This document shows, piece after piece, positions 5,395 through 64,000 of a DNA stretch of 64,000 nucleotides. The position numbers and the translations under genes are program-made. Location of the stretch: sequence record PQ287642.1. The stretch is one strand, 5' to 3'. Every line of letters starts with the position of its first letter. The stretch's first letter is position 1. This DNA is from Pseudomonas phage HHBS36_1. The notes below the pieces were generated by a model, which was not told where the DNA came from, searched no databases, and worked only from the letters and a program-made list of their open reading frames with translations.

Positions 5395-5434
5395 AGCTCC
5401 TACCCGAAGGTAGGAGCTTTATGCCGTCTTACAC
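5395..5434. terminator. Bidirectional hairpin terminator plus CTTTATGCCGTCTTACAC element
   Basis: AGCTCCTACCCGAAGGTAGGAGCT: GAAG tetraloop, A8 tract on the left, CTTTATGCCGTC on the right. Confidence 0.6.
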
Positions 5435-5668
5435 TTGTGCTTCAATCATCATGAAAAGACCACCCAAGAAGAGAGTGATCAGCGCTACGATAGCAGCTCC
5501 CCATATGAGAGCAGTGCAAATCATATTAATGCGGTCGAGCATGATGATATCTTTCTTGGGTAAACGAGTTCGACGAACATCATCGTTATCTTTTACCAGT
5601 TTTGCTACGAACAGGGACCCAGCGATAATCGAAATAGAGATCCACCAGATCAGCATGATGGTTTCCAT
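5429..5668 (-). CDS. Small membrane protein (2 TM)
   Basis: Two hydrophobic helices (IWWISISIIAGSLFVAKL and ALIWGAAIVALITLFLGGLFMM). Confidence 0.5.
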   Translation of the reverse strand: METIMLIWWISISIIAGSLFVAKLVKDNDDVRRTRLPKKDIIMLDRINMICTALIWGAAIVALITLFLGGLFMMIEAQV

Positions 5669-5681
5669 GATTAACTCCTTG

Positions 5682-5942
5682 TTAGTTCATGAGCGTCCAC
5701 GGCGGTAACTGGAGAGGGGTATACACGCTAACCAGGGCCGTAATGATCATTACTAGATAAATCGCAAAGCTAATTGCCCAACTGACGCAGAGGAACATGC
5801 AGAGGTACTTCCAATTAGGAAGCCACTTGCATACACCCATTACGAACAACCACGATACAGCATAGCCAGTCATGATCAATAGTCCAGGAAGGCTAAGTGT
5901 CCCGTAAATAAACGCTATTGGGTTAGTAAACATCAAATCCAT
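5682..5942 (-). CDS. Small membrane protein (3 TM)
   Basis: Hydrophobic segments throughout; packed tightly against its neighbours. Confidence 0.5.
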   Translation of the reverse strand: MDLMFTNPIAFIYGTLSLPGLLIMTGYAVSWLFVMGVCKWLPNWKYLCMFLCVSWAISFAIYLVMIITALVSVYTPLQLPPWTLMN

Positions 5943-5950
5943 GTTAACTC

Positions 5951-6139
5951 CTATTTTGGAAGCATGTCGAATAAATGATATCCACTATAGCCGGTGATAG
6001 CAATAATAACTACGCCAAATAGAACCATAGAGATTCTATCTGAAAAGGTTTTACTGCTAGCTACCAAGCCATAGAAAGTCATTACACCTCCAACCGTAAG
6101 AGAAGCGAAGAAGGTGAGTATCAGTACAATCCATCCCAT
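5951..6139 (-). CDS. Small membrane protein (2 TM)
   Basis: MGWIVLILTFFASLTVGGVMTFYGLV ... MVLFGVVIIAITGY. Confidence 0.5.
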   Translation of the reverse strand: MGWIVLILTFFASLTVGGVMTFYGLVASSKTFSDRISMVLFGVVIIAITGYSGYHLFDMLPK

Positions 6140-6143
6140 GGTA

Positions 6144-6353
6144 TCAACTCAGAAAGATGTTATAAAAGGTTGCCATGATCAAGTATACGGCAAGAAGGAT
6201 TGCTGCCAAAGGACCAGATGCATTGAAAGCTTTAGCCAGTTTAATCGGCAGGTGGTTCGTTTTGACACCCATGACCGCAAGTCCCTGTTTCAGGAAAAAG
6301 ACGATGAACAGAGTGATGATAGCGAAAGCAAATACATTGGTGATAATAGCCAT
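6144..6353 (-). CDS. Small membrane protein (2 TM)
   Basis: Hydrophobic helices; an early promoter copy lies upstream at 6386-6409. Confidence 0.5.
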   Translation of the reverse strand: MAIITNVFAFAIITLFIVFFLKQGLAVMGVKTNHLPIKLAKAFNASGPLAAILLAVYLIMATFYNIFLS

Positions 6354-61530: not shown

Positions 61531-61531
61531 C

Positions 61532-63196
61532 ATGCTTCCTGTACCATACGGGAATTCCGACTACATGGACCCTAATAGGGGTTGGTGGGTTTGGAACCGC
61601 AAAGATATCGTCCAGCAAGCTGGACAAGTAAATAAGTGGGTCCCCAATATTGGGGACCTCGTTTGGGACCGCGAGAATGGCTGGTTCACAGTTGAGGATG
61701 TCGAAGAGGGTACTCACGTAGCTACTCTTAAAGAATGGTATCCTCCAACCAAAGTTGACCCCGATGGCGAAGAAAACGTACTGGTGGGCGTAGGTCCAGG
61801 CTATAGCTCCGAAAGCTACCGTCTGTTCCTTGATACCAGCGTTATTCCCCATACTCTCGCACCCGATAAACGTCTGCATTTTTATGGCTCGATGGTTGCT
61901 AGTTACAAAGTCTTTAAGGGTAGTGATATCTCTGAAGAATTTGGTAAGATCATCTCTGCTTTCTTCACTCCCTCTGGTGATTACACGGGTCCACTTATTC
62001 CAGTTGAGACAGTAACCGTCGGTAATGGCTCTCAGAACGTCATTAAGGCCCCTATGGTTGGTTTTACAGCCGAGGAGATGGATGACGGTGAGCGTTGCAC
62101 CTTGGTGGCCTACGATGACCTTGGCGGGGTTGTGTCGATAGCACAGTTGCTCGTACAAAACACGAAAGCAATTCGACAGTCTGATAATTCGAAGAAGTAC
62201 ATTGCCGGTATCGAGATCGAGAGTCCGTTCCTGTCTGCTGCCGATCCTAAGGTTATTGAATTCCCGCTGAACGTAAACGTTGAATCTCTTCCGATGGTTG
62301 GTATGATTAACTATCGTGGTGGTTCTAAAGTACGTCGCGGTATCGATAACTCGACAATGTTCTTGTTTGGCATGGAAAACTATATCGCTACTGAGATTGG
62401 ACAGGAGTTCCCGCTTACTCTTGCTTACCAGTTAGCAGACGATGAAATTTCCTATGCGTTGACACCAACAGCAAATCGTCGGATTACAGAAAACTACATT
62501 GCCCGTACAACTGCTGCCGATGGAGCTTACGAATGCCGTCTATTCGTTTATCCAGTATGGCAAAACGTTACTGCTGGCTACCGTCTGGAATTCTGGCTTT
62601 ACAACTTGGATCGCCAACGTTTCTACAACGTTACTTCTTTGGTTGAACTTGGTGTTAACTCAGCACCATTCAATCCGAAGGGTTATGGTAATCTACAAAC
62701 GCTTACCTACGCTGTTAACCTGAACAAGGTCGATGGTCGTTTCGCACCACATCGATTCGTTACTACATTCCAAGTTGCGCTCCTGACATCTGGTGAAAAC
62801 CGTGATGCTAACTGGGAAATCTACACTCGTCCTGATGTAGACGCAGCTTATGGACGTGGTCTGAAAGCCGATCTGGAATACATCCAAACCAACGCTTGGG
62901 ATCTACGTCTCCAGAACGGAGCTAATACCAAAGAAGCATGGTTGCGGAAGATGTATGAAGCAGCCGAGCCTCTTGTAAATCCGGACTCTGAGATTGTGGC
63001 TCCTACACCGACTCACTTTGTATTGCATTTCTTGCATAACAAATACGAGTTCAGTGTTGAACAATGGAAAGATAAGTTGCGTGTTAATAACGATCTTGCC
63101 GATGGAGAGCTTCTCTACATCCAATGGATTCGTCGTGAATACGACACTGATCTTCAATTGGCGATGACCGGTATTCCAGTACTGAAACGCGCTTAA
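61532..63196 (+). CDS. Hypothetical (probably structural) protein (554 aa)
   Basis: Starts 2 nt after the preceding stop. Confidence 0.55.
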
Positions 63197-63204
63197 GGCA
63201 TAGT

Positions 63205-63224
63205 GCCGTCTCATTAGAGACGGC
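63205..63224 (+). terminator. Hairpin plus CTTTATGTCGTTTTAG, ending one gene and preceding the next
   Basis: GCCGTCTCATTAGAGACGGC. Confidence 0.5.
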
Positions 63225-63263
63225 TTTATGTCGTTTTAGTATGTAACAAATAGGAGCTGGACC

Positions 63264-63914
63264 ATGATTGAAATTTTACTATCGGTCAACTCTAAAAGAG
63301 CTAAACCAAGTGTTTTACCTACTGAACTGATAGCCGGTGATTCGACACTAGGTTATTTTGGTACAGTTACAGCTGCCGATTTCATTGGCGCTGAACAAAT
63401 GAACGATGTACACGGTTTTTCTGGTAATCCGTATGGAACGCGAATGCCAGATCAAACAGATGTAGATTGGTTAATGTTCTCTTTAAATGACAGACGACTC
63501 TTAGTCTCTACAAAGACTATCCGTCATTCAATGTCCTTTGATCAATTAGTTTTGGCCATTAATAACTTCAATACTAATTCATCTAAAGTAAAAGATATTG
63601 ATTGTAAGATATCTTATCTGTCAGGCGGTGCAAGTGGTTCCCCAGCCAACTCGGAGTGGGGTCAGCTGATGTACCGTGTATCCGCGAATGATCCAACTGG
63701 AACATTCTGGGAAAATTTAAGTAATGAGGATCTTGGATTTGTACATCCAAGTAACCTCGGTATTTGGACATGGACACCCACTAATGGTAACACTGGGTCT
63801 CCTAGGTTCAAAGTCTTACGTGGTGGACCTAATGGCGTAACAGGGTGGGGGCAGAACGCACCATCTCAACCTAACGTAGGTTATGGTTGGCGCCCAGTAC
63901 TAGAGTTAATCTAG
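63264..63914 (+). CDS. Hypothetical protein (216 aa)
   Basis: Preceded by hairpin-CTTTATGTCGTTTTAGTATG, then AGGAG, then ATG. Confidence 0.5.
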   Translation: MIEILLSVNSKRAKPSVLPTELIAGDSTLGYFGTVTAADFIGAEQMNDVHGFSGNPYGTRMPDQTDVDWLMFSLNDRRLLVSTKTIRHSMSFDQLVLAINNFNTNSSKVKDIDCKISYLSGGASGSPANSEWGQLMYRVSANDPTGTFWENLSNEDLGFVHPSNLGIWTWTPTNGNTGSPRFKVLRGGPNGVTGWGQNAPSQPNVGYGWRPVLELI

Positions 63915-64000
63915 ATACAGAAGCTTTCCCTTCGGGGGAAGCTTTATGTCGTAAATTAACCCTAAAGGTATGAACCTTTTGTTTCTTTAAGGAAACGGTC

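Follow-up and report, generated by a model that had tools for sequence, protein, structure and literature searches.

Putative intrinsic terminators at gene ends

A hairpin followed by a TATGYCGT tail was found to recur at gene ends throughout a 64,000-nucleotide (nt) stretch of Pseudomonas phage HHBS36_1 (PQ287642.1; the whole stretch is referred to here as the window). These elements are very probably factor-independent (intrinsic) transcription terminators, of a type conserved in phiKZ-like jumbo phages (estimated probability of roughly 0.88). The window derives from a PA1C/PS119XW/phiHQ-like Pseudomonas aeruginosa jumbo phage of the Chimalliviridae, with a 6-kb probe showing 99.5-99.8% identity to the P. 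aeruginosa jumbo phages phiHQ, PS119XW, BRkr, PA1C and phiLBG22, 87% to HPP-Temi and approximately 78% to PhiPA3 in the DNA polymerase gene. Gene calls were transferred from phiHQ. The window is syntenic with roughly 12-76 kb of the phiKZ genome in inverted orientation, with genes sharing about 64-70% DNA identity.

The exact sequence CTTTATGYCGT was identified six times in the window (5417, 13203, 30272, 63224 and 63942 on the plus strand and 31947 on the minus strand), compared to 0.02 expected from 100 dinucleotide shuffles, while TTTATGYCGT with at most one mismatch gave 20 matches against 9.4 +/- 3.3 expected. A census of the window that started from hairpins, and was thus independent of the motif, identified 22 GC-rich, mostly tetraloop hairpins at gene ends, corresponding to 29 sense readings. 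When read in the direction of the upstream gene, 16 of the 22 had a stem followed within 0-3 nt by (T)(T)TATG and Y(C/T)(G). These strict copies are located at 5396, 13180, 30251, 41025, 47216, 53250, 63205 and 63923 on the plus strand and at 30722, 31947, 34453, 37662, 43351, 48098, 49257 and 54519 on the minus strand, with 15 of them lying 2-19 nt past the stop codon of a co-oriented gene. Three further hairpins of the minus strand possess close variants of the tail (7011, TTTATACCGT; 22772, TTTATAACGA; 44633, TTTTATTCCGTC). A TATG starting no more than 5 nt from the GC stem was found in 14 of 30 gene-end sense readings and in only 1 of 59 hairpins within genes (Fisher p = 2e-7); the tetranucleotide itself occurs 419 times on the two strands of the window. 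The initial annotation had reported this repeated pattern of a hairpin and TATGYCGT, which proved to be real, with all of its coordinates corresponding to actual sites and being a few nucleotides off at most.

The hairpins have folding energies of -16 to -24 kcal/mol (z -3.6 to -8.2), and their loops are mostly UUCG in the sense direction, the opposite strand of the same hairpin reading CGAA. Stems with a pyrimidine-rich 5' arm and a purine-rich 3' arm are seen, such as GCCCCTACC/GGTAGGGGC, GCCTCCC/GGGAGGC and GCCCTCTCC/GGAGAGGGC. In approximately half of the tailed hairpins, TAT[GA] is found on each flank (RCATAA-stem-loop-stem-TTATGY), which makes them partly palindromic. Enrichment of YCGT beyond the U-rich stretch, which had been anticipated from the sequence, was borne out by the logo of positions following TATG (Y 20/21, C 15/21, G 13/21, T 13/21), these counts being approximate as the 21 aligned readings take in variant and T-run readings and two minus-strand copies (34453 and 49257) were aligned two bases early. 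Another 50-kb stretch of phiHQ was found to hold about 15 more copies with the same tail logo. Rfam covariance models gave no match at the gathering score anywhere in the window, and nothing relevant at E-value thresholds.

Termination in phiKZ has been mapped by ONT-cappable-seq, with 133 termination regions described (Putzeys et al. 2024, microLife; PMC10914365). Among these phage terminators, 61 predicted as intrinsic with ARNold share the consensus BCCYCCCCHWWDGGGRRGGBYTTATKYYGT, a stem-loop followed by TTAT (PMC10914365), with which the window element agrees position by position. The published phiKZ coordinates of transcription start sites (TSS) and transcription termination sites (TTS), taken from the bioRxiv supplement of PMC10914365, were mapped onto the phiKZ sequence from 1 to 170 kb (TSS P001-P126, TTS up to T076), and all statements on mapped phiKZ ends refer to this part of the dataset. 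Seven window copies are positional orthologs of 3' ends mapped there, namely T036, T034, T028, T021, T016, T012 and T006. Features shared with the phiKZ terminators are the C-rich/G-rich GC stem-loop, the (Y)TTAT and KYYGT segments, the location just past stop codons and the bidirectionality between convergent genes. They differ in that phiKZ tails are more often YTGT whereas window copies favour YCGT, and the window phage belongs to another species.

Terminator motif A of phage 201phi2-1 (n = 59) bears, according to its authors, a strong resemblance to that of phiKZ (Poppeliers et al. 2024; PMC11512511). Eight 201phi2-1 terminators were active in vivo in a two-reporter trap in uninfected cells, performing best with a stem elongated by flanking motifs (PMC11512511). 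A scanned 42-kb stretch of 201phi2-1 shows the same TATG-Y-C-G-T tail, with flanks that elongate the stem as CATA/TATG do in the window, although this phage belongs to a more distant genus (Serwervirus) and has fewer copies per kb in that stretch. For close relatives, the literature already covers this class of element, together with its consensus (YYGT tail included) and the occurrence of bidirectional copies. What is added here is a usable map of transcription-unit ends for this phage, with about one terminator per 3 kb of the window, as follows:

5396..5427, plus strand: after gene 4984-5379; hairpin GCTCCTACC-CGAA-GGTAGGAGC, then TTTATGCCGT; positional ortholog of phiKZ TTS T036; runs into the stop codon of convergent gene 5429-5668
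5378..5417, minus strand: opposite reading of the 5396 hairpin, UUCG loop, then TATGCTTTATTTTTTTTT; T-run type; closes the short operon 6353<-5429, headed by an early-type promoter box
7001..7028, minus strand: after helicase homolog 7034-8116; tail TTTATACCGT; positional ortholog of T034
13180..13213, plus strand: after gene 12810-13172; tail TTTATGCCGT; bidirectional, the minus reading having a T-rich tail at the end of the gp68-gp70 homolog operon; stem covaries in HPP-Temi and PhiPA3
22762..22791, minus strand: after gp59 homolog 22802-23416; variant tail TTTATAACGA; positional ortholog of T028
24925..24964, minus strand: T-run type at the end of the chimallin mRNA; hairpin and TTCTATCTCCTTTTTTTG; aligns with phiKZ TTS T025
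30251..30282, plus strand: after gp52 homolog 29159-30244; tail TTTATGTCGT; bidirectional, minus reading TGTTTATTATGTTTTTTT
30712..30739, minus strand: after 30747-31916; tail TTTATGTCGA; 17 nt from stem to next start codon
31937..31964, minus strand: after 31971-32135 and the DNA polymerase operon; tail TTTATGTCGT; 30 nt from stem to next start codon
34441..34470, minus strand: after gp49 homolog 34478-34885; tail ATATATGTCGTC; positional ortholog of T021; ACGACATA kept in HPP-Temi and PhiPA3
37652..37677, minus strand: after gp43 homolog 37684-38703; GAAA loop; tail TTTATGCCGG
41025..41056, plus strand: after 40091-41008; UUCG loop; tail TTTATGCCAT; bidirectional, minus reading TATACTTATTTTTTTTTT
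41590..41624, minus strand: T-run type; hairpin and TTTATTTTGTTTTTCTTTTTT, then early-type box 41564-41556
43341..43372, minus strand: after gp41 homolog 43375-43869; tail TTATGTCCAT
44621..44650, minus strand: after PhuZ gene 44657-45604; variant tail TTTTATTCCGTC; positional ortholog of T016
47216..47246, plus strand: bidirectional; plus reading CTTTATGCCTT; minus reading TTATTCCACTTTATTTTTTTTTT, at the end of gene 47245-48030
48088..48115, minus strand: after 48123-48428; tail TTTATGTTGT; early-type box 48073-48065 directly downstream
49246..49276, minus strand: after 49287-49634; tail TATATGTCGCC
53250..53281, plus strand: after gp32 homolog 51986-53230; tail TTATGTCGTG; positional ortholog of T012; minus reading ATTTATGTTTTTTTTTT
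54509..54536, minus strand: after the tail-sheath/gp30 homolog operon; tail TTTATGTCGG; then early-type box 54484-54476
63205..63234, plus strand: after gp26 homolog 61532-63196; tail TTTATGTCGT; positional ortholog of T006
63923..63952, plus strand: after 63264-63914; UUCG loop; tail TTTATGTCGT

Canonical bacterial intrinsic terminators consist of a GC hairpin followed by a U-rich stretch, with nothing conserved past the U-tract. The window elements likewise combine a GC hairpin with a U-rich stretch, and have an upstream A-rich segment complementary to the tail, but their U-tract amounts to no more than UUUAU, and a conserved, G/C-rich GYCG comes next. The tail has four U before the G/C-rich sequence, compared to the canonical criterion of about five or more U in 8 nt.

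Several points weigh against the assignment as terminators, which for this phage is drawn from homology and position. The U-tract is shorter than canonical, and a simple terminator consensus scan flagged only the T-run side of bidirectional hairpins and not the TATG side. In addition, 3' ends obtained with ONT sequencing cannot tell termination from exonucleolytic trimming back to a stable hairpin, and a TTS is called in only 26 of 57 phiKZ readings of this kind, many of the others being antisense readings of the same hairpins. Any pause role of the G and YCG in place of a longer U-tract is one that we infer. Lastly, no alternative promoter is visible before the next gene at 30722 and 31947, where read-through has to be assumed.

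The tail TATG and late promoters

The initial annotation had proposed that these elements are a terminator fused to a late promoter, in which the hairpin stops transcription and the non-virion RNA polymerase (nvRNAP) restarts at the G of TATG, the two together forming a compact cassette at the boundary. This was a reasonable suggestion, as the core of phiKZ late promoters is TATG with its G as +1, being necessary but not sufficient and with downstream sequence also of importance (Yakunina 2015, PMC4666361), and as gp123, the beta-like subunit of nvRNAP, binds TATG of the non-template strand directly (nvRNAP-promoter structure, PMC12809450). The window elements share with phiKZ late promoters this TATG, often with T or C before it. 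Moreover, only 17-39 nt separate the hairpin from the next start codon at several window sites, and the want of another visible promoter at 30722 and 31947 would also be in keeping with a promoter inside the element.

The mapped ends of phiKZ, used as a proxy for the window phage, do not agree with this proposal. A mapped 3' end lies within 3 nt of the G in 26 of the 57 readings of a hairpin with TATG, mostly at offsets of -1 (8 sites), +1 (6) and +2 (9), whereas an ONT-cappable-seq TSS lies within 3 nt of the G in none of the 57. Two observations had been named beforehand as speaking against the fused element, and of these the presence of 3' ends without accompanying 5' ends was seen in phiKZ, while a lack of YCGT enrichment was not seen. 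At 10 of the 57 readings a separate early, middle or late TSS is located 6-58 nt downstream. Among TSS P001-P126 no late-promoter TSS falls on the TATG belonging to a terminator; the closest cases are the rare late TSS found 6-10 nt past a terminator (P049 and P075), each of which uses a second, separate TATG a few nucleotides past that of the terminator itself.

The arrangement of genes in the window argues in the same direction. Among the 16 strict copies, six run head-on into the end of a convergent gene, at its stop codon, and a promoter at these sites would make antisense RNA only. Three of the six perfect 11-mers, and with them the best motif matches, belong to this group. Many copies have no co-oriented gene downstream. 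The copies at 48098 and 54519 precede early-type promoter boxes, as seen in phiKZ at P017, P028 and P099. A second TATG is found after the 63205 terminator (63240-63243). Its position corresponds to that of P006, a phiKZ late promoter located 28 nt past T006. This separate TATG is the likely late promoter, judging from its phiKZ counterpart, and the pair mirrors T006/P006. The terminator part of the proposal is therefore retained on the grounds of gene-end position, stable hairpins, the phiKZ consensus and the TTS orthologs, while the late-promoter part is not supported by the phiKZ ends (0/57 TSS) or by the gene arrangement of the window, and the fused element as a whole is considered quite unlikely. 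An annotation rule by which TATG after a hairpin denotes a late promoter is tempting but wrong, and is now removed.

Alternative explanations for the hairpin and tail

The same elements might act in RNA processing or stability, with 3' ends arising from endonuclease cleavage in UUUAU/G or from 3'-exonuclease stalling at the hairpin and with the tail being a nuclease recognition site. The 3' ends of ONT-cappable-seq are no proof of termination, the tail is conserved beyond the needs of a U-tract, and extended CAUA/UAUG pairing would stabilise read-through transcripts. Set against this is the ability of the 201phi2-1 terminators to stop transcription between two reporters in uninfected cells (PMC11512511). 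The architecture, position and bidirectional T-run partners of the window elements are furthermore classic for intrinsic terminators, relatives of the Salmonella phage SPN3US type have plain T-run terminators at the same kind of position, and a processing site is not needed to explain the data; this explanation is thus held to be unlikely. A palindrome acting at the DNA level, be it the site of a dimeric protein, a cruciform or a dispersed repeat of repetitive extragenic palindrome (REP) or miniature inverted-repeat transposable element (MITE) type spread by duplication, would account for the tailed hairpins with TAT[GA] on both sides and for the 19 identical bases shared by 5417 and 13203. 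It is nevertheless highly improbable, given that stems differ between copies and covary between orthologs with only the loop type and tail being kept, which argues for selection on structure and not for recent copying. Orientation also strictly tracks the upstream gene, loops favour UUCG in the transcribed sense, and neither flanking target duplications nor shared flanks were found around the copies.

Use of the ATG in TTTATG as a start codon was also considered and rejected. The 95-amino acid open reading frame (ORF) at 5421 is antisense to annotated genes and has no ribosome-binding site, the hairpin occupying that position, and most copies lack an ORF.

Conservation of the terminator among related phages

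In HPP-Temi and PhiPA3, both arms of orthologous hairpins were found to change together in a compensatory manner while the TATGYCGT tail is kept; in one example GCAGGGGACC...GGCCCCCTGC is replaced by GCTGGGAGCC...GGCTCCCAGC, each being followed by T(T/C)TATGCCGTCTTAC. The same tail logo was obtained for HPP-Temi, PhiPA3, phiKZ, 201phi2-1 and Psa21, so that the phiKZ terminator consensus, GYCGT tail included, is shared by at least five lineages of nucleus-forming Pseudomonas phages. In Salmonella phage SPN3US (1-50 kb), hairpins at gene ends precede long plain T-runs, and none of them in this region has a TATG tail. In Escherichia coli phage Goslar (1-50 kb), such tails occur on a few hairpins (TTTATGCYGT, TCTATGCCGT, TTTTTATGCTGT or TTTCTATGCCGT), and one hairpin with a TTTTTATGCTGT or TTTCTATGCCGT tail is located past the major head protein gene. 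As SPN3US is without the tail and Goslar has a few in these regions, the tail appears to be lineage-specific within the nucleus-forming phages and not tied to Pseudomonas. This points to a tail that tracks the phage lineage rather than the host, as a feature of the phage polymerases.

The 19 identical bases at 5417-5435 and 13203-13221 (GCTTTATGCCGTCTTACAC) cover the stop and last codon of convergent minus-strand genes, and TATGYCGTCTTAC is seen again at phiKZ T036 and, in HPP-Temi and PhiPA3, at the sites orthologous to these. Conservation consequently reaches past YCGT at some bidirectional sites.

Proposed mechanism of termination

According to the terminator reading, the transcript would fold into a GC-rich hairpin of 7-10 bp, mostly with a UUCG-type tetraloop, 2-19 nt past the stop codon. 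The polymerase would then make a short, weak UUUAU hybrid and the RNA would be released at, or no more than 2 nt from, the following G. So short a U-tract is probably assisted by a pause or anti-translocation signal, consisting of the invariant step from U to G and the G/C-rich YCG downstream, which would give the hairpin time to act. The elemental pause consensus of multisubunit RNA polymerases is G(-10)Y(-1)G(+1). The U-to-G step of the window, situated 5-6 nt past the G-rich 3' arm, would fit Y(-1)G(+1), with a downstream duplex that may be harder to melt.

Termination is probably partial at many internal sites, in which case genes 17-30 nt downstream would be expressed by read-through. The internal terminators at 30722, 31947 and 43351, which lie at such distances before the next start codon, thus probably leak, in agreement with the overlapping transcription units reported for phiKZ. 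A new unit would begin at a separate early, middle or late promoter tens of nucleotides downstream of the terminator. Hairpins between convergent genes would act both ways, with the TATGYCGT tail on one side and a long T-run on the other.

The frequent upstream CATA(A), complementary to (T)TATG, makes the element partly palindromic, and folding indicates that the tail, if transcribed, can extend the helix, matching the elongated-stem motif combination of 201phi2-1. An explanation of the conserved G by CAUA/UAUG pairing was rejected. Among hairpins with a tail on each side, concordant G/G and A/A are only marginally in excess (34, 12 and 5 observed compared to about 31, 17 and 2.4 expected, calculated by hand), and phiKZ 3' ends are situated inside TATG, so that release takes place before the tail could pair. 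Such pairing may still stabilise RNA that has been read through.

It is conceivable, though doubtful, that the beta-lobe pocket of gp123 captures the non-template TATG (in the -3..+1 register) in the elongating nvRNAP, causing a pause with the UUUAU hybrid as the hairpin forms and taking the place of a long U-tract. In phiKZ, mapped 3' ends lie from -1 to +2 relative to the G, which is compatible with this register. If true, promoter and terminator would share TATG through one recognition site, and tuning to a particular polymerase would lie behind both the YCGT tail and the lack of it in SPN3US.

Terminators with a T-run and bidirectional hairpins

The initial annotation had described a strand asymmetry, with TTTATG following plus-strand genes and a T-run following minus-strand genes. 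No such strand rule was found, TTTATGYCG being present at most minus-strand terminators as well. T-runs occur mainly in the minus readings of six bidirectional hairpins between convergent genes (5396, 13180, 30251, 41025, 47216 and 53250), the plus readings of which carry the TATG motif. Other T-run sites are located at 22284, 24945, 34357 and 41607.

All eight plus-strand terminators in the window have a TATG-type tail. The plus-strand group was treated as late because the four upstream genes with a phiKZ counterpart (gp52, gp42, gp32 and gp26 homologs) match mostly head or virion-protein genes. The first terminators of operons headed by early-type boxes comprise five of the TATG type and six of the T-run type (Fisher p = 0.018 against the plus-strand group), a comparison that is confounded by convergent geometry. 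For the mapped part of phiKZ, the nearest upstream promoter of TATG-type terminators is early in 1 case, middle in 6 and late in 13, and that of T-run terminators early in 2, middle in 2 and late in 5. Polymerase-specific classes, with T-runs belonging to early transcription by the virion RNA polymerase (vRNAP) and TATGYCGT to nvRNAP, are not claimed, the class of upstream promoter in phiKZ failing to separate the two types.

Early-type promoter boxes

Eleven early-type boxes with the sequence CTATAT(T/C/A)A(C/T) (CTATATTAC and variants) were identified, all intergenic and on the minus strand:

6397-6389, minus strand: early-type box
12777-12769, minus strand: early-type box
17781-17773, minus strand: early-type box
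27239-27231, minus strand: early-type box
29128-29120, minus strand: early-type box
39150-39142, minus strand: early-type box
41564-41556, minus strand: early-type box
46920-46912, minus strand: early-type box
48073-48065, minus strand: early-type box
51934-51926, minus strand: early-type box
54484-54476, minus strand: early-type box

Each follows an A/T-rich stretch (for example AAAAAATATCTCAGATCTATATTAC) and matches the phiKZ early (vRNAP) promoters in the covered part of the TSS table. The boxes head operons of nvRNAP subunits, chimallin and others, and three of the eleven are found directly past a terminator (41607, 48098 and 54519), the same tandem as at phiKZ P017, P028 and P099. By homology and annotations in relatives, nvRNAP subunits were assigned to 8625-12736, 16163-17740 and 23437-24903, chimallin to 25296-27161, DNA polymerase to 32146-34296, PhuZ to 44657-45604 and the tail sheath to 55663-57756.

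Conserved non-coding stretches

The intergenic gaps flanking the chimallin gene are unusually long (27162-27451, 290 nt, and 24904-25295, 392 nt). The first of these holds an early-type box, and several promoters (P026-P028) are listed for the matching region of phiKZ. The 392-nt gap, between chimallin and the gp55 homolog (23437-24903), contains an unannotated non-coding stretch of approximately 330 nt (24965-25295, minus strand), the phiKZ counterpart of which is transcribed as the 3' untranslated region of the chimallin mRNA up to TTS T025. This stretch shares about 85% identity over approximately 307 nt with phiKZ and about 50 phiKZ-like phages, making it more conserved than any protein-coding gene aligned between the window and phiKZ (the chimallin protein being 48% identical), and its small indels rule out a coding function. 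No Rfam match was obtained for it, and no mention of it was found in two phiKZ transcriptome papers. A consensus fold of -129 kcal/mol was calculated, with seven pairs changed on both sides among three sequences, and the first hairpin exists in three compensated versions (window, phiKZ and PhiPA3). The stretch has the appearance of a conserved structured RNA.

A second conserved non-coding block (47026-47145) was identified in the gap 46873-47244, with 81% identity to phiKZ 31131-31248 in the gap between gp37 and gp38, where no mapped TSS or TTS falls within the part of the dataset covered. An ORF of 33 amino acids annotated there in phiHQ (47045-47143) is doubtful. The block is an AT-rich, partly palindromic stretch around an invariant TGGGGGGGACCCTTTGGGGGGGTCCCA, and could be a DNA-level site or a small RNA.

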